Made by a program: the position numbers and the translations under genes. Below the pieces are notes generated by a model that searched no databases, was not told where the DNA came from, and saw only the letters and a program-made list of their open reading frames with translations. Positions 7,032-63,553 of a stretch of DNA of 64,000 nt are shown here, in pieces. How positions within the stretch are numbered: the first letter of the stretch is position 1; each line of letters begins with the position of its first letter. This DNA is from an uncultured Nesterenkonia sp. (GTDB lineage Bacteria; Actinomycetota; Actinomycetes; Actinomycetales; Micrococcaceae): the NCBI GenBank assembly GCA_947494195.1, contig CANLUC010000004.1:122188-186187 (forward strand). Direction: 5' to 3'.

Positions 7032-7967
7032 ATGGCCCTGACTCCTGACGATCTCCTGAACAAGGAATTCCCTGAGACCAAGTTCCGTCCCGGTTACGAC
7101 AAGGACGAGGTCGACGACTTCCTCGACGAGGTCGTCGTCGAATGGCGACGACTGACCCAGGAGAACGAGGATCTCACCGCCAAGGTCGCGGCCCTCGAAG
7201 AGCAGCTTGAGGAGAACCCGGCGAACCTTGAGCCGGACGAGCTCAAGGACGCGGGCCTCTCCGGATACGCCGGCACCAGCTCCACGATGACCGGCTCGAT
7301 CGACCGGATCAGCGATGAGCAGGAGCCGAAGGCCGACTCGTCCGCCACCGCGTACCCCGAGTACGAGCTGGGCACCCGTCCCGCCCAGGAGCGGCCTCAA
7401 GAGTCCGCCGGGGCAGATCACGCGGCCTCGGCCACCGGTGTGCTGGCCATGGCGCAGAAGCTGCACGACCAGTACGTCTCCGAGGGCGAGCAGACCCGCG
7501 CGGCCTACATCGCTGAGGGTGAGTCCAAGCGAGCAGAGTACCTGGCAGAAGGTGAACAGACCCGCGAGGCCTACATCGCCGAGGGCACGCAGACCCGCGA
7601 GGCCTACATCGCTGAAGGTGAGTCCACGCGCGCTGAGTACATCGCCGAGGGCGAGACCCGCCGCGATGAGCTGATCAGCGCTGCAGAGAGCACCCACGCA
7701 CAGCTGCTGGCGGAGGCCGAGCGTCGCCGGAACGAGATCGTCACCGACGCCGAGACGCGCGCCGAGAACATGATCGAAGAGGCCGAGCTCACCTCCACGC
7801 GCACGCTCAACGCGCTGGAGCGCAAGAAGGCGGACCTCGAGTCCAAGGTCGGGGAACTCACCAGCTTCGAACGCGACTACCGCGCCCGGCTCAAGGACTA
7901 CATCGAGGGCCAGCTCGCGGACCTGAACAGCCGCGGCTCCATCGAGAAGGAAGCCACCGGCGCCTGA
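7032..7967 (+). CDS. divIVA: DivIVA/Wag31 polar growth scaffold
   Basis: The N-terminal lipid-binding domain MALTPDDLLNKEFPETKFRPGYDKDEVDDFLDEV is diagnostic. The rest is coiled coil. Confidence 0.92.
   Translation: MALTPDDLLNKEFPETKFRPGYDKDEVDDFLDEVVVEWRRLTQENEDLTAKVAALEEQLEENPANLEPDELKDAGLSGYAGTSSTMTGSIDRISDEQEPKADSSATAYPEYELGTRPAQERPQESAGADHAASATGVLAMAQKLHDQYVSEGEQTRAAYIAEGESKRAEYLAEGEQTREAYIAEGTQTREAYIAEGESTRAEYIAEGETRRDELISAAESTHAQLLAEAERRRNEIVTDAETRAENMIEEAELTSTRTLNALERKKADLESKVGELTSFERDYRARLKDYIEGQLADLNSRGSIEKEATGA
7482..7679 (+). repeat. Six in-frame tandem 33-bp (11-aa) repeats inside divIVA
   Basis: EGEQTRAAYIA / EGESKRAEYLA / EGEQTREAYIA / EGTQTREAYIA / EGESTRAEYIA / EGETRRDELIS, read directly from the translation. 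Confidence 0.9.
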
Positions 7968-22174: not shown

Positions 22175-22248
22175 GCGGATGTAGCTCAGCTGGCTAGAGC
22201 ATCACCTTGCCATGGTGAGGGTCGCGAGTTCGAATCTCGTCATCCGCT
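22175..22248 (+). tRNA. tRNA-Gly(GCC)
   Basis: Acceptor GCGGATG/CATCCGC, anticodon arm TCACC-TTGCCAT-GGTGA, T-loop GGTCGCGAGTTCGAATCTCG. Confidence 0.92.
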
Positions 22249-22366
22249 CGCAGGATTTGGGGAAACCCTTGAACGATCAGCAGGATCACTGCACGGCAGC
22301 CGGGTCTTCAACGATCGGGTCGCTGGATGTCAGTCCGGGACGGTGTAGTGTTTCGGGGATGGCTAC

Positions 22367-22437
22367 GGTGGGGTGGCCGAGTGGCGAGGCAGCGGCCTGC
22401 AAAGCCGTTAACGCGGGTTCGATTCCCGTCCCCACCT
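22367..22437 (+). tRNA. tRNA-Cys(GCA)
   Basis: Acceptor GGTGGGG/CCCCACC, anticodon loop CTGCAAA, T-arm GCGGGTTCGATTCCCGT. Confidence 0.9.
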
Positions 22438-22521
22438 CGCAGCTTCGCTTGAGACACCGGGCGGGGAGACTGAGAACAACGAGAACTGAATAAGTCTGAA
22501 TGGATGAGACAGTCCATACGG

Positions 22522-22593
22522 GCGCGATTAGCGCAGCGGTAGCGCGCTTCCCTGACACGGAAGAGGTCACTGGTTCGATCCCAGTATCGCGCA
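22522..22593 (+). tRNA. tRNA-Val(GAC)
   Basis: Acceptor GCGCGAT/ATCGCGC, anticodon arm CTTCC-CTGACAC-GGAAG, T-arm ACTGGTTCGATCCCAGT. Confidence 0.9.
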
Positions 22594-22646
22594 CTGAGTA
22601 CAGGAGATTCCGCCGCCGAGAAGGTGGCGGGGCATCCTGAACTCAT

Positions 22647-22720
22647 GCGGATGTAGCTCAGCTGGCTAGAGCATCACCTTGCCATGGTGAGGGTCGCGAG
22701 TTCGAATCTCGTCATCCGCT
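22647..22720 (+). tRNA. tRNA-Gly(GCC), second identical copy
   Basis: Identical 74 nt to 22175-22248. Confidence 0.92.
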
Positions 22721-22731
22721 CAGAACACAGG

Positions 22732-22765
22732 GAAGGGCCCGGGACCTCATGGTCTCGGGCCCTTC
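22732..22765 (+). terminator. Strong hairpin after the tRNA cluster
   Basis: 15-bp stem GAAGGGCCCGGGACC / GGTCTCGGGCCCTTC (one G-U pair) with tetraloop TCAT. The downstream CTGTATGT is only weakly T-rich. Confidence 0.5.
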
Positions 22766-22887
22766 CTGTATGTGCCGGCAGTTGGAGGTGGCCTGCCCCA
22801 GAAGCCTGCTTTCCCCAGACCATTGATTTCCCCAGATTGCGGTGCGGACGGGCCGCGCCGGCGCATGTGGCACACTTGGTGCTACAC

Positions 22888-23033
22888 AATTCGTGCTCCG
22901 GGATCGGTGAAAATCCGAACCGGCGGTCAAAGTCCGCGACCCGAGTCAGGTGCAGCCCGGCTGCTCCGGTCTTGGTTGAACCGGTGGAACTCCGGTACCG
23001 ACAGTCACAGTCTGGATGGGAGAAGCACGAGAG
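22888..23033 (+). promoter_or_regulatory. FMN riboswitch (RFN element) controlling the rib operon
   Basis: P1 TCGTGCT (22891-22897) / AGCACGA (23024-23030). Conserved cores GGATCGGTGAAAATCCGAACCGGCGGT..AGTCCGCGACCC and GGTGGAACTCCGGTACCGACAGT.ACAGTCTGGATGGGAGAAG. Confidence 0.9.
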
Positions 23034-44617: not shown

Positions 44618-44701
44618 GCCCGAATGGCGGAATCGGTAGACGCGCCGCACTCAAAATGCGGTACCACTGGTGTGTGGGTTCGAGTCCCACTTCGGGCACC
44701 A
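44618..44701 (+). tRNA. tRNA-Leu(CAA), CCA encoded
   Basis: Acceptor GCCCGAA/TTCGGGC, anticodon loop CTCAAAA, long variable arm, T-arm GTGGGTTCGAGTCCCAC, then ACCA. Confidence 0.92.
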
Positions 44702-44729
44702 CGATCGACAAGGGACCAGAAGGAGAACG

Positions 44730-45470
44730 GTGAGCGAACAGACTCAGTCCGGCGGCGCTGGTGCCCCCGAGGAAGCACCCGCAGCAGCAACCCCGGCGTC
44801 GGCAGCCCCGGCACCCCAGCCGACCCCGGCCACAGCGTCCCAGCCGGCGCCACTCGCCGCGTCCCAGGAGACGCCTCAGGAGCAGGCCCCTGAGGGACAG
44901 ACGCCGCGCCGCGTGCTGGTCGCCGAGGACGAGACGCTGATCAGGCTGGACATCGTAGAGATCCTCGCCGGAGCCGGCTACGAGGTCGTCGGCGAGGCAG
45001 ACAACGGCGAACGAGCCGTGGAGCTCGCCCGAGAGACCGAGCCCGATCTGGTCGTGATGGACGTCAAGATGCCCATCATGGACGGCATCTCTGCCGCGAA
45101 GATCATCGCCGAGGAGCGGATCGCGCCCGTCGTGATGCTGACCGCCTTCTCGCAGCGCGACCTCGTCGAATCTGCGCGCGAGGCGGGCGCGATGGCGTAC
45201 GTGGTCAAACCCTTCACCGAGAATGACCTGATCCCGGCCGTGGAAGTCGCCATGGCGCGCTTCGATGAGATCCGGGCCCTGGAGGACGAGGTCACCTCGC
45301 TCGCCGACAAGTTCGAGACGCGCAAGCTCGTGGAGCGCGCCAAGTCGCTGCTCACCACGAAGATGGGCCTCTCCGAGCCGGAGGCCTTCCGCTGGATCCA
45401 GAAGACCTCGATGGACCGCCGACTCTCCATGCGAGAGGTCGCCGAGACGGTCGTCGACCAGATGGGCTGA
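44730..45470 (+). CDS. pdtaR: ANTAR-domain response regulator (PdtaR-like) with a Pro/Ala/Gln-rich N-terminal extension
   Basis: GTG 44730 lies 5 nt after SD AAGGAG. REC domain RVLVAEDE..DLVVMDVKMP. ANTAR domain KLVERAKSLLTTKMGLSEPEAFRWIQKTSMDRRLSMREVAE. Confidence 0.85.
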   Translation: MSEQTQSGGAGAPEEAPAAATPASAAPAPQPTPATASQPAPLAASQETPQEQAPEGQTPRRVLVAEDETLIRLDIVEILAGAGYEVVGEADNGERAVELARETEPDLVVMDVKMPIMDGISAAKIIAEERIAPVVMLTAFSQRDLVESAREAGAMAYVVKPFTENDLIPAVEVAMARFDEIRALEDEVTSLADKFETRKLVERAKSLLTTKMGLSEPEAFRWIQKTSMDRRLSMREVAETVVDQMG

Positions 45471-45485
45471 CTACCTCCGTTTCCC

Positions 45486-45570
45486 GTTGAGGGGCGGATT
45501 CTCCGACTAGTTGAAGCTGTTTTCGGCCTCAGATGCTCCGAGAATCCGTCCCTCAGTGCGTGGGAGGGGG
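45486..45570. repeat. Palindromic intergenic element, copy 1 (degenerate right arm)
   Basis: Left arm GTTGAGGGGCGGATTCTCCG 45486-45505, 32-nt spacer, right arm CCGAGAATCCGTCCCTCAGT 45538-45557, G-rich tail GCGTGGGAGGGGG to 45570. Confidence 0.85.
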
Positions 45571-45571
45571 T

Positions 45572-45892
45572 TCACATCTCGAAATAGAACTGGTGGTGGG
45601 CCGCGCAGCCCGGGTTGAACGGCGCCGCACAGGACCTGCATTGCTCGGCCACGAGGTATTCGTCGATGCTGAACCGCCGGCGGCAGACCCCGCAGAGCAG
45701 AGCGAGCTCGGTCCGGCGCCCCAGCGGCCAGCGTCTGATCGGATGCGCCTCGGTCTCCTGATGGCACTTGAGGCAGGGATACCAGCGGTCACAGCAGAAG
45801 AACCTGATCGCGACGACGTCCAGCGGTCCGGCGTAGTGCCGACAGCGGGTCTGGTCGTCCACTGCTGGGCCGCGGATCTGAGCTTCCTCCAT
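45572..45892 (-). CDS. CHY-type zinc-finger protein
   Basis: RCRHY..FFCCDRWYPCLKCHQE..H..LCGVC..CRSCAAPFNPGCAAHHQFYF is the zf-CHY Cys/His pattern. Start taken at MEEAQIRG (45892); an upstream in-frame ATG at 45958 is possible. Confidence 0.8.
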   Translation of the reverse strand: MEEAQIRGPAVDDQTRCRHYAGPLDVVAIRFFCCDRWYPCLKCHQETEAHPIRRWPLGRRTELALLCGVCRRRFSIDEYLVAEQCRSCAAPFNPGCAAHHQFYFEM

Positions 45893-45966
45893 GATCCCGA
45901 GGCTATCCGACCCCTGCCGCGCCCCTCGCGCTGAGCCCACCCCTCGGGCCGAGCTCACCCCTCCCC

Positions 45967-46067
45967 GTTGAGCGGCGGATTTTCCGAGTATTTGATGCGT
46001 TTTTGGCCCTAGATGCTCGGAGAATCCGCCGCTCAGCGCAGGTGGGGCCGCCGCTCAGCGCAGGTGG
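45967..46067. repeat. Palindromic intergenic element, copy 2 (right end tandemly duplicated)
   Basis: Left arm GTTGAGCGGCGGATTTTCCG 45967-45986, 31-nt spacer, right arm CGGAGAATCCGCCGCTCAGC 46018-46037. CCGCCGCTCAGCGCAGGTGG occurs twice (46026-46045 and 46048-46067). Confidence 0.85.
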
Positions 46068-46186
46068 AATTACCCGCTCTGCGCAGGGGAATCACCGCAT
46101 CCCTGCACCCCAGTGGAATTCTGCATGGTGAGACGAGCAGCGGTGCGGGTGCGCTGGGACACCTTCTCAGGCATAGAATTCAGAAC

Positions 46187-58370: not shown

Positions 58371-59906
58371 ATGACTGTCACTGCAGCACCCGCAGAGAAG
58401 ATCCCCGCCGTCGATCCGCAGACTCAGGTTCGCGTCCGGTTCTGCCCCTCGCCCACCGGCACCCCGCATGTCGGGCTGATCCGCACCGCGCTGTTCAACT
58501 GGGCCTACGCCCGGCACACCGGCGGCAAGCTCATCTTCCGCATCGAGGACACCGACGCCGCCCGAGACTCCGAGGAGTCCTACGAGCAGCTGCTGGAGGC
58601 CCTTCGCTGGCTCGGCATCGATTGGGACGAAGGCGCGGAGGCCGGGGGACCGCATGAGCCCTACCGCCAGTCCCAGCGCGGGGAGATCTACGCCGAGGTG
58701 CTGCAGAAGCTGCAGGCGGCGGGCTTCGTCTACGAGGCCTTCTCCACTCCGCAGGAGGTGGAAGACCGGCATCTCGCCGCAGGGCGAGACCCGAAGCTCG
58801 GCTATGACGGATTCGACCGTGAGCTGAGCCAAGACCAGATCGAGGCCTACAGGGCCGAGGGTCGCGAACCGGTGCTGCGCTTCCGGATGCCCGATGAGGA
58901 GATCACCTTCACCGACGCGGTCCGTGGCGACATCACCTTCGGCGCCGGATCCGCACCGGACTTCGTCGTCGCCCGTGCCAATGGCCAGCCGCTCTACACC
59001 CTGGTCAACCCGGTGGACGACGCGCTCATGGAGATCACCCACGTGCTGCGCGGAGAGGACCTGCTCTCCTCCACCCCCCGCCAGGTGGCGCTGTACCGCG
59101 CTCTGTATGCCGTGGGAGTGGCCAAGCACATGCCAATCTTCGGGCACCTGCCCTACGTGATGGGGGAGGGCAATAAGAAGCTCTCCAAGCGCGATCCGGA
59201 ATCGAATCTCTTCCACCACCGGGACCGTGGGTTCATCCGTGAAGGGCTGCTGAACTACCTTGCGCTGCTGGGCTGGTCACTCTCGGCCGATGAAGACATC
59301 TTCACGGTGGAGCAGCTCATCGAGCACTTCGACATCGCCGACGTGCTGGCGAATCCCGCACGCTTCGACGTGAAGAAGGCCGAGGCCATCAACGGCACTC
59401 ATATCCGTCGCCTCGAGTCCGCAGATTTCCGGGACCGACTGGTGCCTTACCTGCAGGCCCGCGGGCTCGTGGGTGAGCCGCTGCATGAGCGGCAGGCCGC
59501 GATGCTCGACGGCGCCGCTCCACTGGTGCAGGAACGCATCGCCCTGCTGGACGAGGGAGCAGACATGATGAGCTTCCTCTTCGTGGAGGACTCCGCGCTT
59601 CAGATCGAGGACAAGGCCTTCAGCGGCTTGGGCGACCAGGTCTTCGAGACCCTGGATGCGTCCATCTCGGCCCTCGAGTCACTGGGCGAGCAGGCGTGGA
59701 CCACCGAGTCGGTGGAGGCCGCGCTGCGCGAAGCGCTGCTGGACGGGCTCCAGCTGAAACCACGCAAGGCCTTCGGCGCCGTGCGCTCGGCGATCTCCGG
59801 ACGTCGGGTCTCTCCGCCGTTGTTCGAATCCATGGAGCTGCTGGGTCGGGACTCTTCGCTGAGCCGGCTGCGCCGCTTCCGTGAACTCGCAGCAGCTCGC
59901 GGGTGA
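58371..59906 (+). CDS. gltX: Glutamyl-tRNA synthetase
   Basis: [22 protein letters not shown] (HIGH region) and KLSKR. Confidence 0.96.
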
Positions 59907-60032: not shown

Positions 60033-60104
60033 TGGGCTATGGTGTAATTGGCAACACAGCGGTTTCTGGTACCGTCGTTCTAGGTTCGAGTCCTAGTAGC
60101 CCAG
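60033..60104 (+). tRNA. tRNA-Gln(CTG)
   Basis: Acceptor TGGGCTA/TAGCCCA, anticodon arm GCGGT-TTCTGGT-ACCGT, T-arm CTAGGTTCGAGTCCTAG. Confidence 0.9.
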
Positions 60105-60175
60105 CGAAGACCCTCATGTGGTCTTTAACACAGTACGACCGGCCCTCGGCGACGGGGGCCAAAGCTATGGAATGC

Positions 60176-60248
60176 GGCCCCATCGTATAGCGGCCTAGTA
60201 CGCTGCCCTCTCACGGCGGTAACGCGGGTTCGAATCCCGCTGGGGTCA
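60176..60248 (+). tRNA. tRNA-Glu(CTC)
   Basis: Acceptor GGCCCCA/TGGGGTC, anticodon loop CTCTCAC, T-arm GCGGGTTCGAATCCCGC. Confidence 0.9.
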
Positions 60249-60334
60249 CGGCCGTTCGCCCCCGATCTGCTCGCAGATCGGGGATGAACTCTCCATGCAG
60301 CATCTCCAGCCCGGCTGGAGCGTCAATTTCATAG

Positions 60335-60407
60335 GGCCCCATCGTATAGCGGCCTAGTACGCTGCCCTCTCACGGCGGTAACGCGGGTTCGAATCCCGCT
60401 GGGGTCA
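60335..60407 (+). tRNA. tRNA-Glu(CTC), second identical copy (CCA follows)
   Basis: Identical to 60176-60248 and followed by CCA. Confidence 0.9.
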
Positions 60408-60423
60408 CCATCATCAGTGACGA

Positions 60424-60463
60424 AGAAGCGCCCGGTCTCGGAAGAGGCCGGGCGCTTCTTTTC
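60424..60463. terminator. Terminator hairpin shared by the tRNA operon (+) and the LAxTG gene (-)
   Basis: Stem AGAAGCGCCCGG (60424-60435) / CCGGGCGCTTCT (60448-60459). TTTTCT follows on the plus strand; the other side is pyrimidine-rich. Confidence 0.7.
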
Positions 60464-60466
60464 TGC

Positions 60467-60550
60467 GTTGAGGGGCGGATTCTCCGTGCATCTCATAGGC
60501 TTTTCGGCCCCAAGTGCCCGGAGAATCCGCCCCTCAAAGTGGGTGGGGTG
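60467..60550. repeat. Palindromic intergenic element, copy 3 (best preserved)
   Basis: TTGAGGGGCGGATTCTCCG (60468-60486) is perfectly complementary to CGGAGAATCCGCCCCTCAA (60519-60537). 32-nt spacer. Tail GTGGGTGGGGTG ends at 60550. Confidence 0.9.
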
Positions 60551-60551
60551 A

Positions 60552-62675
60552 CTAGACCTGACGACGACGGCGCGCCGGCCACGCCGCTGCAAGGCCCAGC
60601 AGCACGAGCAACAGACTGCCGAGCGCGGTCCACCCGGCGCTGAAGCCGGTCTTGGCGAGCTCCGTGGAGTGTGCCGCGGACGCACCTTCCGGATCGGAGT
60701 GCTGAGTGTGCGTGCTAGCCTCGGTGCCTGACTCAGTGTTGTGAGCTTTGTCACTGCCTGCTGCGGCGTCGCTCGTCTCGAGAACCGCGTCCGTCACCTC
60801 ACGGCCGGAGACAACTTCGCTGTCATCGGAGGCGGGAGCAACGCTGCTGCTGGTGGCTGAGGAATTCCCGCTGGAGTCGTCACCGTAGGAGCTGTCTCCA
60901 GCGGAGTCGCCACCGCCGGAGGCCTTTTGGTCGACGTCCCCAGGGTTGGGTGATTCATTCGAGTCGGTGGTGTCGGGCTGACCCTCGTCTGCCTCCGCGT
61001 CGGGCGCTTCGTCGCCTGCGGGTGCGTCCTCCTCGTTGGAAGCGCCCTCGCCATCGGATGTCTCGTGGTCGACGTCCCCAGGGTTGGGTGATTCATTCGA
61101 GTCGGTGGGATCGGGCTGACCCTCGTCTGCCTCGGCGTCGGACACTCCATCGCCTGCCGGGCCCCCGTCGTCTCCATCGGGAGTCTCCTCACTGTTGGAG
61201 GGCTCGTCGTCGATGTCTTGCTCATCATCTGAGTTGCCAGAGCCTGTCTGACCGTGAGCTCCCGGCTCTGCATGCTCGTCCTGATCGTAGTGGTAGATCC
61301 ACTCCATCTTCAGGAGGTCATTCGGGAACTTGTAGCCGTACAGAGGATTCGCATCGACTGTCAGAGGCTCATCTTTAGGGATTGCAACTTCGCCGGACTC
61401 GTACCCGTAGTCAACTCCATCGATATCAGGAATCGAGATGGTATTTCCATCGCGAGTCGGCTCCTCGGGCGTGACAACGACGAAATCTTCATCTTCGTCA
61501 TCCTCGTCGACACCAGCGATGTACTCGAATGACCACTCAGTCTTTGTACCCTCAGGAAGCGTATATCCTTCCTTTGCGGAGACGGTGACCGTCAGAGTCT
61601 CCCCTTCGGGAATGTCTACAACGTCTTCAAATCCATTGAACGATGACGTCGCGTTCTCATTCCAGGTGAACTCAAGTCCTGGATCTCGGAAGACCAGGAC
61701 CTCATTCGGGTTACGCAGTGAGCGTTCGGGCTCGTAGAAGTCCACCTCGATGTCATTCGGCGCGTCTTCAGATTGATCGTCTGCTATATTCCCATAGGAA
61801 AAATTGAGTAATAGCTCACCATCATTGTAGCCGTCCCAAATTTGCCAACCGCCATTATCACTCAAGAAAAGTGGAACGACAATCTCTTCTGTATCGCCGA
61901 CGTTTACGTGGTGAACTCCTGTGTACTCAATTTTGTCTGTCTCCAGATCAAACTGATAGTCATCGATATATGACAAGTCATCCTGGCCGAAAGATCGGAT
62001 AATGAATGACTCGTATTCTGAGTTATTGCCATTTCGAATAGTCACTGTCGCGGTCATGTTGACATAATCAACATTCGAAACGCCAGACCCAAAACCAACG
62101 ATCTCGTCATTCGAGCCATCCTTCTCCGTTGCTTCTTGTTTGGGTGTTGGCTTGGGTTCTGCGGGCAGAACCTCTTCTTCAAGTTCTGACTCAGGGTCTT
62201 CCTCCGAAGCGGTCTCCAGCTCAGCAATCTCATCCGATACATCGGGCGTCTCTTGCTCGGCCGGCGCTTCAGTCTCGGCAGGTACCGATTCGTCAACCAC
62301 ATCTTCGGTGAGGCTGGGTTCAAGTTCGGACGCAGAATCTGGATTCTTTGGCTCTGCCTCAACGACCTCGGGCGCCGCATCGACCTCAGCTTCGTCAGCC
62401 CTGTGTTCAGGATTCTCGCTCTCGACAACGAGCGGTTCGCTCTCAGTCGCGATGTCCTCTGAGCCGGTCGCGACATGCTCGGCGGGACTGTTCTTCTCAG
62501 TGCCCTCACCATCGGGCTCATCGATCTCGGAGGTTGGGTCTGTGTCGAGTGCCTTGGTCTCTACGACGTCGCTGCTTTCGGTGGCTTGTTCGGTGTCCGC
62601 CATGGCGGCGGCGGGCGATCCAAGCATCAAGGCGCCGGCAGCGGCCAGCGTGAGGGGGGTGCGAGCAATTTTCAC
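60552..62675 (-). CDS. Highly acidic secreted LAxTG-anchored (sortase-substrate) surface protein
   Basis: Signal peptide MKIARTPLTLAAAGALMLGSPAAAMA. C-terminal LAKTG + hydrophobic segment + RRRRQ. Asp/Glu-rich flanks around a beta-rich core. GTG start with GAAGGAA SD. Confidence 0.85.
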   Translation of the reverse strand: MKIARTPLTLAAAGALMLGSPAAAMADTEQATESSDVVETKALDTDPTSEIDEPDGEGTEKNSPAEHVATGSEDIATESEPLVVESENPEHRADEAEVDAAPEVVEAEPKNPDSASELEPSLTEDVVDESVPAETEAPAEQETPDVSDEIAELETASEEDPESELEEEVLPAEPKPTPKQEATEKDGSNDEIVGFGSGVSNVDYVNMTATVTIRNGNNSEYESFIIRSFGQDDLSYIDDYQFDLETDKIEYTGVHHVNVGDTEEIVVPLFLSDNGGWQIWDGYNDGELLLNFSYGNIADDQSEDAPNDIEVDFYEPERSLRNPNEVLVFRDPGLEFTWNENATSSFNGFEDVVDIPEGETLTVTVSAKEGYTLPEGTKTEWSFEYIAGVDEDDEDEDFVVVTPEEPTRDGNTISIPDIDGVDYGYESGEVAIPKDEPLTVDANPLYGYKFPNDLLKMEWIYHYDQDEHAEPGAHGQTGSGNSDDEQDIDDEPSNSEETPDGDDGGPAGDGVSDAEADEGQPDPTDSNESPNPGDVDHETSDGEGASNEEDAPAGDEAPDAEADEGQPDTTDSNESPNPGDVDQKASGGGDSAGDSSYGDDSSGNSSATSSSVAPASDDSEVVSGREVTDAVLETSDAAAGSDKAHNTESGTEASTHTQHSDPEGASAAHSTELAKTGFSAGWTALGSLLLVLLGLAAAWPARRRRQV
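60931..61154 (-). repeat. Two in-frame 138-bp (46-aa) tandem repeats in the LAxTG protein stalk
   Basis: TCGACGTCCCCAGGGTTGGGTGATTCATTCGAGTCGGTGG..GGGCTGACCCTCGTCTGCCTC occurs at 60931 and again at 61069. It encodes DAEADEGQPD(P/T)TDSNESPNPGDVD twice. Confidence 0.9.
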
Positions 62676-62885
62676 GGAGTGGTTCCTTCAGAACGGTGCG
62701 GCGCTCGGAAAATTCAGGGGCGAGCGCGTCGCGGCGTGGGCAAGGGGAGATGGACGATCTGTGCAGGTGGCCCCAACTCCGAACCTAGGATGCGACTGTC
62801 GGTTCCTGTAGGTGTTCCGGTACCGGACGGAAAACTCGGACGGTCGCGTAGTGGCTTTCTCGCTCTGAGGAACAGCCGCGGAGTA

Positions 62886-62921
62886 CAAAAAGTGCCCGGC
62901 CCCATAAGAGACCGGGCACTT
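62886..62921 (-). terminator. Rho-independent terminator for the DUF421 gene (minus strand)
   Basis: Stem AAGTGCCCGG / CCGGGCACTT. The plus-strand CAAAAA at 62886-62891 reads as a U-tract after the hairpin on the minus strand. Confidence 0.7.
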
Positions 62922-62932
62922 CTTCGTTCTGC

Positions 62933-63019
62933 GTTGAGGGGCGGATTCTTGGTGCATCTCATGAGCTTCTAGGCCCAAAGTGCTCGGAGAATCCGCCCCT
63001 CAACGTGGGTGGGGTGGGG
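62933..63019. repeat. Palindromic intergenic element, copy 4
   Basis: Left arm GTTGAGGGGCGGATTCTTGG 62933-62952, 32-nt spacer, right arm CGGAGAATCCGCCCCTCAAC 62985-63004, tail GTGGGTGGGGTGGGG to 63019. Confidence 0.9.
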
Positions 63020-63553
63020 TTAGTTCTGTTCGGGGCGGCCCGTGAAGGGCAGGACCGAGGAGCCGTCGCCGAGTCCTTCGCCGCCGATGACGACGAGGCC
63101 GCCGTTCTGTTCGAGGATCACGGCGGAGACGCCTTCCAGGGATCCATGTGCGGAGTTGCGCGCAGCGGTGTGGACGTCGTCCTCCACCAACTGGTGCTTG
63201 CGCAGCGCCTTCCGCTGGAACTTGCCCTGGTAGTAGATCAGCACCGGCGGGGCATCCAGCACGCGTCGCATCTTGGGGGAGCGGCCCCGCACGAATGCCA
63301 TGAGCCACTGCAGCAGCACGATGAGCGCGAGGGCGAACACCGCCTGGCTCAGCGGCACGTCCACTGCGGTGATCGTACGTCCGAACGCAGAACCGATGGT
63401 GACTGCCACGATGAAGTCCAAAGGCGTCATGTTCGCCATGGTCCGCGGACCGGAGATTCGCAGGATGAGGATGAGGGCTATATAGCCGGCCGTCAGAGTG
63501 ATGGCCGTGTGAAGAATCGGGTCCCACCCGGCCCAATATTGAGTGATGTCCAT
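63020..63553 (-). CDS. DUF421 (YetF-like) membrane protein
   Basis: Three N-terminal TM helices with the RISGPRTMANMTPLDFIVAVTIGS motif typical of DUF421, plus a soluble C-terminal domain. Confidence 0.8.
   Translation of the reverse strand: MDITQYWAGWDPILHTAITLTAGYIALILILRISGPRTMANMTPLDFIVAVTIGSAFGRTITAVDVPLSQAVFALALIVLLQWLMAFVRGRSPKMRRVLDAPPVLIYYQGKFQRKALRKHQLVEDDVHTAARNSAHGSLEGVSAVILEQNGGLVVIGGEGLGDGSSVLPFTGRPEQN

Follow-up and report, generated by a model that had tools for sequence, protein, structure and literature searches.

A probable single-gene cassette hot spot, flanked in one genome by duplicated terminator-palindrome units, between tRNA-Glu and DUF421 in Nesterenkonia

We analysed a stretch of 64,000 nucleotides (nt) from the genome of an uncultured Nesterenkonia sp. 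(hereafter the window), in which the gene for a surface protein with an LAxTG anchor motif lies between two copies of a short unit made of a transcription terminator hairpin and a palindromic element. Comparison of this site with its counterparts in related genomes suggests that the interval between the tRNA-Glu genes and the yetF/DUF421 gene is probably a hot spot for single-gene cassettes of the minimal mobile element (MME) type, whose alleles would be exchanged by homologous recombination. The site offers a well-delimited example of single accessory genes being swapped at a chromosomal hot spot of a high-GC actinobacterium with no mobility gene found, and the accessory gene in this example encodes a predicted cell-wall-anchored surface protein. 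The palindromic element belongs to a newly defined family of stop-codon-adjacent repeats, REPIN-like in form and reaching Microbacterium, in which a flipped loop and a duplicated unit point to recombination at the arms.

The original prediction, made from the letters of the window, held that two extended copies of the element surround the LAxTG gene in direct orientation, and alignment bore this out. The direct repeats at 60417-60550 and 62882-63016 are identical in 115 of 137 aligned columns (84%), and both consist of a GC-rich terminator hairpin followed by a palindromic element of ~90 nt. The site is laid out as follows, in positions of the window (ORF, open reading frame; aa, amino acids):

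58371-59906, gltX, upstream of the tRNA cluster (ORF, Pfam)
60033-60105, plus strand, tRNA-Gln(CTG) (ARAGORN, Rfam)
60176-60249, plus strand, tRNA-Glu(CTC) (ARAGORN, Rfam)
60335-60410, plus strand, tRNA-Glu(CTC) (ARAGORN, Rfam)
60422-60461, plus strand, terminator hairpin A: 18-bp GC-rich stem, GGAA loop, T-rich tail on the plus strand
60461-60550, plus strand, element copy 3: arms CGTTGAGGGGCGGATTCTCCG / CGGAGAATCCGCCCCTCAA(A)G, ~35-nt variable centre, G-rich right flank
60552-62675, minus strand, LAxTG cargo gene, 707 aa (ORF)
62676-62885, minus strand, upstream region of the cargo gene (presumed promoter), 210 nt, within the inserted segment
62886-62925, no strand assigned, terminator hairpin B, paralogue of hairpin A (fold, unit alignment)
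62927-63016, plus strand, element copy 4, 89% identical to copy 3
63020-63553, minus strand, yetF/DUF421 membrane-protein gene (Pfam YetF_N + DUF421), the conserved right flank

Copy 3 abuts the stop codon of the LAxTG gene (60552-60554) and copy 4 that of DUF421 (63020-63022). Of the four element copies in the window (45480-45569, 45960-46047, 60461-60550 and 62927-63016, numbered 1 to 4), the last two had been predicted to be each other's closest kin; they are indeed identical at 76 of 85 positions (89%), whereas copies 1 and 2 are 72-78% identical to them and to each other. The claim that the similarity continues for about 45 nt to the left, through a GC-rich hairpin with a compensatory change, also proved right. 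The hairpin and spacer, ~45-50 nt to the left of copies 3 and 4, are identical at 39 of 52 positions (75%), where 1000 shuffles peaked at 59%; the hairpin B spacer TCTTCGTTCTGCG is homologous to the unit 1 spacer TCTTTTCTGCG, and the stems (AGCGCCCGG/CCGGGCGCT versus AGTGCCCGG/CCGGGCACT) differ by a compensatory C-G to T-A pair. Both units fold much more stably than shuffled sequences (z -6 to -10). The motif TTGAGGGGCGGATTCT occurs eight times in the window at up to three mismatches, against 0.65 expected, and TRF found no tandem repeats between 60400 and 63100. We rejected an assembly artefact as the source of the two units because they differ at 22 of the 137 aligned columns.

Hairpin A is the terminator of the tRNA operon as well as the left part of composite unit 1. 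Orthologous hairpins lie 3' of tRNA-Glu in Act20, N. aurantiaca, E16_10, N. jeotgali, N. lutea and two metagenome contigs (L160 and L145), and the one in Act20 has a compensatory pair that arose independently (GCGTCCGG/CCGGACGC). On the left, hairpin B has acquired a run of A (ACAAAAAG), which supplies a U5 tail on the minus strand; judged by this predicted tail, it looks better fitted for DUF421 termination than the ancestral hairpin, with its U-tract toward the tRNA operon. A consensus scan for promoters and terminators was uninformative on such structures, since its loop and stem limits miss long hairpins; it called no promoter in 62676-62885, a segment without homology to related loci.

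We then compared the same interval in relatives. Act20 is the closest, with 96-98% identity to the window over syntenic stretches and ~97% in the flanks. The original prediction had suggested seeking, between gltX, the tRNAs and DUF421, an empty site with a single composite unit, and such sites were found in Act20 (L012), N. aurantiaca (L070) and metagenome contigs L160 and L145, where a single hairpin and a single element separate tRNA-Glu from the stop codon of yetF/DUF421 and no gene is present. Other genomes hold other cargo: E16_10 has a gene for a Zn-dependent alcohol dehydrogenase (Zn-ADH) between two elements; N. jeotgali has a 184-aa gene between two elements, its stop codon overlapping the second; and LB17 and AY15 have a CPBP protease, a DUF4012 protein and a 213-aa LAATG protein, with an element on the DUF421 side only. 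The alleles are therefore empty (five genomes, one with an element remnant), LAxTG, Zn-ADH, the 184-aa gene, and CPBP + DUF4012 + LAATG. The cargo of the window and that of E16_10 are encoded on the minus strand, that of N. jeotgali on the plus strand. About 50 nt of the jeotgali-type cargo are kept beside the tRNA-side element of E16_10, which implies that cargo was replaced in place.

The flanks themselves are constant. The genes gltX, tRNA-Gln, two tRNA-Glu and yetF/DUF421 are conserved in all eight genomes with both flanks readable (in the window, ORFs and Pfam identified gltX and DUF421); in the two metagenome contigs the tRNA(s) and DUF421 agree; and the tRNA cluster downstream of gltX, the left flank of the hot spot, is kept in all Nesterenkonia loci compared. 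Gene tables for N. jeotgali, N. lutea and AY15 list no integrase, recombinase or transposase family within 7 kb of DUF421 on either side.

The genome with the element remnant is N. lutea (L096:7535-7560), in which the tRNA-Glu hairpin is followed only by CCGTTGAGGGGCGGA and then by the DUF421 stop codon. This sequence is a 14-nt remnant of the left arm, the trace either of an excision or of an ordinary deletion.

The LAxTG protein begins MKIARTPLTLAAAGALMLGSPAAAMA and ends LAKTGFSAGWTALGSLLLVLLGLAAAWPARRRRQV, with a signal peptide at the N-terminus and, at the C-terminus, an LAKTG motif, a hydrophobic stretch and an RRRRQV tail. LAxTG is the class E sortase signal, and by these features the cargo is a secreted, acidic surface protein, predicted to be anchored by a sortase. 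Within the gene, a 106-nt repeat occurs twice (60917-61022 and 61055-61160; spacing 138 nt, identity 89%) and codes for an acidic SNESPNPGDVD segment. The gene had been said to look foreign, and its composition agrees: GC content falls to 42-52% in the centre, with a low-GC central domain at 61248-62123, against ~65% around it, and GC content at third codon positions (GC3) is 0.62 against 0.84-0.90 in neighbouring genes. By composition the gene is foreign, which shows that its original source lay outside the genus, and by homology searches it is largely an orphan. It is absent from Act20, N. aurantiaca, E16_10, LB17, AY15, N. jeotgali, N. lutea, L145 and L160, and none of the related loci has a nucleotide match to it. 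The protein gave no Pfam or NCBIfam match and no homologue in a word-index search; no plasmid matched at the protein or DNA level; and exact-protein look-ups returned no record of the window's LAxTG or DUF421 proteins. An exhaustive HMMER search matched only residues 350-470 or thereabouts, in multi-repeat surface proteins, and two of three such relatives scanned contain the 'divergent InlB B-repeat' (Flg_new_2) above the Pfam threshold, one of the two with an LPXTG anchor as well. The N-terminal part of the central domain found no homologue, and a single-sequence AlphaFold model of that domain, with a predicted local distance difference test (pLDDT) score of 39, was unusable. Two viral contigs were returned as matches; neither fits the window or the element profile in a later scan.

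Probable homologous exchange at the site

Compared with Act20, the window is 97-100% identical to the left of the unit; the figure is 88-92% across copy 4 and the DUF421 end, and 96-100% for the remainder of that gene. Eighteen of the 25 DUF421 differences fall in the last 171 of its 534 nt (P about 5e-5); all but two of the differences are at third codon positions, with derived states in both lineages, and the DUF421 protein is 99% identical to that of Act20. The clustering suggests that an allele was replaced by homologous recombination with a donor ~10% divergent, the right crossover lying inside DUF421. It also tells against one part of the original prediction, in which the repeats formed the edge of the exchanged DNA: the divergence from Act20 continues beyond copy 4 over the final ~170 nt of DUF421 (63021-63190), so that the exchanged DNA ends in the conserved flank and not at the repeats.

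The units were then compared half by half. The cargo-distal halves (the left of copy 3 and the right of copy 4) match the single copy of Act20 and N. aurantiaca, whereas the cargo-proximal halves, including the right half of copy 3, carry derived changes. This is the pattern expected from a crossover inside the unit. Orthologues aside, the nearest relative of each flanking element is its partner in the pairs formed by copies 3 and 4, by copies 1 and 2 and by the two elements of E16_10, but not in an old element pair around a gene for a restriction endonuclease (REase)-like protein in three species. The terminator and spacer in the duplicated unit are locus-specific and occur in no other member of the element family. 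Since the unit takes in the tRNA terminator and its spacer, the repeats are duplicated local DNA and not the ends of a mobile element.

The arms themselves recombine, too. LB17 (L069:4420-4510) and AY15 (L097:7533-7625) are 98.7% identical over 5.2 kb, within which the ~34-nt centre of the element is the exact reverse complement in one of what it is in the other, the arms being unchanged. Judged from these two sequences, the flip is a product of recombination or template switching between the inverted arms, and it indicates that the element arms are recombinogenic.

These observations can be joined in one scheme. The unit is the bidirectional intrinsic terminator of the tRNA-Gln/Glu/Glu operon combined with one member of the palindromic family. 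Alleles would pass between lineages by RecA-type homologous recombination, with homology supplied by the conserved tRNA and DUF421 flanks and by the repeated units. The two-unit architecture may have arisen from a crossover in the unit, either by unequal exchange or when a circle of 'gene + unit' integrated in the Campbell manner, and the same direct repeats could delete the cargo gene and leave one hybrid unit. The polarity could run either way: the filled allele may have been gained here, or the empty allele imported by Act20.

An MME of Neisseria (Saunders & Snyder 2002, as summarised in PMC3898611) is an interval, bounded by two conserved genes, that holds differing whole-gene cassettes, has no mobility genes and moves solely by homologous recombination (PMC3898611). 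The tRNA-Glu/DUF421 site likewise lies between conserved genes and holds strain-specific whole-gene cassettes; no mobility gene families are listed around it, and the clustered divergence suggests homologous recombination with the flanks. Dispersed repeats nearby and a surface protein as cargo add to the likeness. It differs in its host, a high-GC actinobacterium, and in that the cassette is bracketed by a duplicated resident palindrome and terminator, which fall outside the MME definition.

Several points weigh against exchange by homologous recombination as the full account. No donor with the LAxTG cassette was found, and the first capture event is left unexplained. The left boundary of the divergent tract is ill-defined, intergenic identity to Act20 being already 92-97% upstream. 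Perfect arm homology extends for only ~21-25 nt, which is marginal for RecA, so that a dedicated enzyme is conceivable. An element-specific process is hinted at by three independent cargos with duplicated flanking elements at one site, by partial arm duplications beside full copies (copy 2, L086, L049), and by the presence or absence of copy 2 between genomes 97-98% identical. Natural transformation or another route of transfer is undocumented here for Nesterenkonia.

A palindromic family beside stop codons

To place the element, one genome per prokaryotic species was scanned for the pattern GGCGGATTYT-N28-46-GAGAATCCGYC. The element was found in six Nesterenkonia species representatives (Act20, N. 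aurantiaca, N. sandarakina, LB17, E16_10 and CF4.4), and a shorter relative with the same arm core in two Microbacterium genomes; other taxa gave scattered matches, for the most part a single one per genome, which were taken as chance. Searching the fetched loci with a profile yielded 54 copies, four of them in the window and two of them weak matches in Microbacterium. From each Nesterenkonia genome 2-10 loci (2-13 copies) were recovered, as counted in 8-kb blocks around exact pattern matches.

The element is ~75-100 nt long, with 21-nt inverted arms (CGTTGAGGGGCGGATTCTCCG / CGGAGAATCCGCCCCTCAACG) around a variable centre of ~24-35 nt, and its flanks, C-rich on the left and G-rich on the right, prolong the stem. 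In a 47-copy alignment the arms are nearly invariant, a property partly built in, as 21 arm positions were fixed by the search pattern; they are also conserved in sequence across species whose genes differ by 15-20%. Paired stem cells make up 81%, against 41-49% with the partner columns slid, and folding z-scores of the copies range from -4 to -10. The overall covariation score was not above shuffles, most columns being invariant. Individual pairs do covary: pair 22/81 takes the forms G-C (34 copies), C-G (6) and U-A (1), and orthologues at the tRNA-Glu site read GGGG/CCCC, GCGG/CCGC (Act20) or GAGG/CCTC (L145), with half-steps in L160 and N. jeotgali.

All copies are intergenic, most of them within ~25 nt of a stop codon. 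For the 46 copies that have a called gene on each side, the neighbouring genes are convergent at 20, tandem at 23 and divergent at 3. Many occupy orthologous positions in three to five species, with synteny kept on both sides. The original prediction read the element as marking the boundaries of acquired DNA. At the tRNA-Glu/DUF421 site the DNA is indeed acquired or exchangeable, and the E16_10 and N. jeotgali cargos are likewise flanked by two elements; as a general rule the reading fails, because the element is a dispersed palindrome beside stop codons, mostly at orthologous, syntenic core positions.

The element has no U-tract of its own, and at the tRNA-Glu/DUF421 locus a canonical terminator lies beside it. 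We infer that mRNA 3' ends contain the element, which would act there to stabilise the transcript or as an auxiliary bidirectional terminator. On the aligned strand, mismatches comprise 64 G-U and 27 A-C; on the transcript strand in tandem contexts, a hand tally gave ~28 G-U and ~13 A-C. The G-U excess is compatible with selection at the RNA level but only suggestive, as orthologous copies are not independent. An Rfam scan of the window at gathering thresholds reported only tRNAs and an FMN riboswitch, and an E-value scan of 60400-60600 gave only sub-threshold matches to generic hairpins (miRNA).

Our literature search on Nesterenkonia palindromes, the arm motif and REPIN/RAYT in Actinobacteria found no description of the element, a dispersed, low-copy, genus-wide palindrome that resembles REPINs. 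A REPIN consists of two highly conserved inverted sequences around a less conserved spacer and forms a long hairpin (Bertels & Rainey 2011, PMC3116915). The Nesterenkonia element shares the inverted conserved arms, the long predicted hairpin, the extragenic position and compensatory stem changes; its arm starts are ~55 nt apart, against 71 nt in P. fluorescens GI (PMC3116915). It also persists vertically at orthologous sites, and after loss a remnant keeps part of one arm. It differs in copy number (2-13 recovered per genome, against hundreds), in its actinobacterial host, in having no GTAG-type head and in that no RAYT was found in the sampled element-adjacent DNA. That sample comprised 5,093 stop-to-stop ORFs of at least 60 aa, drawn from the window and the element-centred loci; searched with E. 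coli RayT (phmmer --max), it returned nothing better than an E-value of 2.6. The genes between element pairs are REase_MTES_1575-like, TfoX_N, TetR, MDMPI_N, CHY-zf and alcohol dehydrogenase (ADH) genes, and not Y1_Tnp. If a specific protein recognises the element, REPIN-type or cassette-type biology would be extended into Actinobacteria; if none does, the element still marks plastic loci and is a candidate 3'-end RNA element.

A palindromic family distinct from this one, GGGTTTGGGGCGGATTCTCGCG...CGCGAGAATCCGCCCCAAACCC, is present at Microbacterium loci L014, L020, L021, L024, L030, L031, L038, L065, L068 and L082. It has the 13-nt arm core GGGGCGGATTCTC in common with the Nesterenkonia element, and several of its copies have C-rich and G-rich flanks and lie just after a stop codon.

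Competing explanations and known systems

The LAxTG gene and both units could instead be ancestral to the clade of the window and Act20, the gene having been lost by Act20 and, independently, by others through repeat recombination or import of an empty allele. We regard this history as possible, though less likely. Deletion between 134-nt direct repeats would be easy, and the unit of Act20 is such a hybrid, resembling copy 3 in its left part and copy 4 in its right. The units have diverged by 16% while the window and Act20 differ by ~3%, so the duplication either predates the split or came in already diverged; derived states in both lineages within the divergent DUF421 tract fit as well. However, four or five separate lineages, among them outgroups at ~80-86% identity, have a single unit, and none of them has LAxTG. 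Long independent divergence would, moreover, predict derived changes in all four halves of the units, but they gather in the cargo-proximal ones, and the gene is still compositionally unadapted.

We consider it improbable that a dedicated cassette system operates at the site. Under such a system the palindrome would be the site of a site-specific recombinase, and circles of a gene with its 3' palindrome would enter resident palindromes in either orientation; by analogy with attC x attC or attI recombination in integrons, this would be an integrase-less system, or one with a novel recombinase, in the Micrococcales. It would account for the arm footprints and for three unrelated single-gene cargos at one site, flanked by element pairs that are local duplicates. 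The arm core GGGGCGGATTCTC, shared with the Microbacterium family, suggests sequence-specific recognition, and there are further cases of an element, a cargo and an element in the CHY gene, the TfoX-like gene (in N. aurantiaca, not in Act20) and the array at L048. An element occurs within 150 nt of 23 of the 46 breakpoints in inter-species homology; of intergenic junctions, 17% hold one. This enrichment is subject to ascertainment, as the presence of an element was the criterion for choosing every locus, and one event can enter several comparisons; a conservative count puts about 6 of 12 independent events at elements (P 0.01-0.05). A general link between the element and plasticity is, on these comparisons, no more than suggestive.

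Against a dedicated system stand the cargo's two orientations and its own upstream region, the inclusion of the non-element terminator hairpin in the duplication, the reach of the divergent tract into DUF421, and the stable core positions of most element copies. The likeness to integrons is one of plan: single genes are delimited by imperfect palindromes of 60-140 nt, and unrelated genes are arrayed at one site. The attC consensus reads R'' RYYYAAC ... R' GTTRRRY. The Nesterenkonia element has GTTGAGG ... CCTCAAC, so its ends are in the reverse order to the attC core sites, with each consensus missed at one position. We found no intI or attI, and no integrase or recombinase family is present among the called genes around the hot spot in N. 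jeotgali, N. lutea and AY15. Hot-spot cargo in both orientations, 210 nt of upstream DNA belonging to LAxTG and a duplication that includes non-element sequence likewise set the site apart from an integron.

That two MITEs (miniature inverted-repeat transposable elements) or REPINs transposed independently to either side of a gene acquired otherwise, or that a composite transposon carried the gene, is barely credible: terminal inverted arms, dispersal, the presence or absence of copy 2, partial arm duplications and a possible excision footprint in N. lutea would fit, but the similarity of the copies runs ~45 nt past the element into a tRNA terminator hairpin and spacer unique in the family, empty sites hold one complete unit and not zero, and the sampled element-centred loci and window contain no RayT-like ORF. 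Nor is there a target-site duplication, the flanks in all 48 listed copies being complementary C-rich and G-rich tracts and not direct repeats. We ruled out a composite transposon and a MITE pair on the single unit at empty sites and the missing target-site duplication. Like the Correia elements and bacterial MITEs described in PMC3898611, the Nesterenkonia element is short, non-coding, dispersed and intergenic, with terminal inverted repeats and a tie to variable loci. It departs from them in having no target-site duplication, in forming one long hairpin over its whole length, flanks included, and in its strong bias toward stop codons. We know of no related insertion sequence (IS) or transposase.

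A tRNA-integrating island was also ruled out, as no integrase was found and the tRNA 3' end is not in the repeat. Foreign low-GC DNA and direct repeats beside a tRNA gene do recall tRNA-associated genomic islands. The repeats, however, start about 7-12 nt past the tRNA (60417, the tRNA ending at 60410) and hold a terminator; no second copy of tRNA sequence occurs at 62870-62885; and only one gene, of 2.3 kb, makes up the cargo.

Other element sites and neighbouring features

The two remaining elements of the window lie to the left of the hot spot:

45480-45569, plus strand, element copy 1, between the stop codons of an ANTAR response-regulator gene (44670-45470) and a CHY zinc-finger gene
45960-46069, plus strand, element copy 2 with a 22-nt tandem duplication of the right arm (46026-46045 / 46048-46067)

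Together they bracket a single minus-strand gene, that of the CHY zinc-finger protein (45572-45958). Copy 1 is conserved in Act20 and LB17. Copy 2, upstream of both the CHY gene and ilvD, has copy 1 as its closest non-orthologous relative. A segment of ~45955-46092, comprising copy 2 and ~45 nt more, is missing from Act20 with no clean boundary, and its absence could be an ordinary deletion. Partial arm duplications beside full copies, like that of copy 2, also occur at L086, L049, L002 and L005.

Variable segments adjoin elements at three further loci: PdtaR/CHY; the locus of a lipoate-ligase-like gene and a 441-aa gene (L002, L048, L086); and L003/L093, where the TfoX-like gene lies between two elements in N. 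aurantiaca and is absent from Act20. The REase-like gene encodes a protein of ~341-343 aa with a weak match to REase_MTES_1575 (DUF559-like endonuclease) and lies between two elements in N. aurantiaca, Act20 and E16_10 (L015:3953-4978, L058:4060-5091 and L060:208-1233); its GC3, 0.80, is below that of its neighbours.

The other side of DUF421 is variable as well. In N. jeotgali (L094:4770-6975), five genes lie between thiL and DUF421: a sigma-70-like gene, genes for a 346-aa, a CHRD-domain and a 102-aa protein, and a sortase gene. An inter-species homology break falls at ~63575 of the window.

Elsewhere in the window, 22175-23032 holds a tRNA cluster, Gly-Cys-Val-Gly, in which the two tRNA-Gly(GCC) genes are 100% identical, and after it the FMN riboswitch (22889-23032, 96.6 bits). 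At 7473-7687, an ORF contains a coding tandem repeat with a period of 33 nt, in four overlapping copies of 83 nt whose identity to the reference copy is 60-83%.

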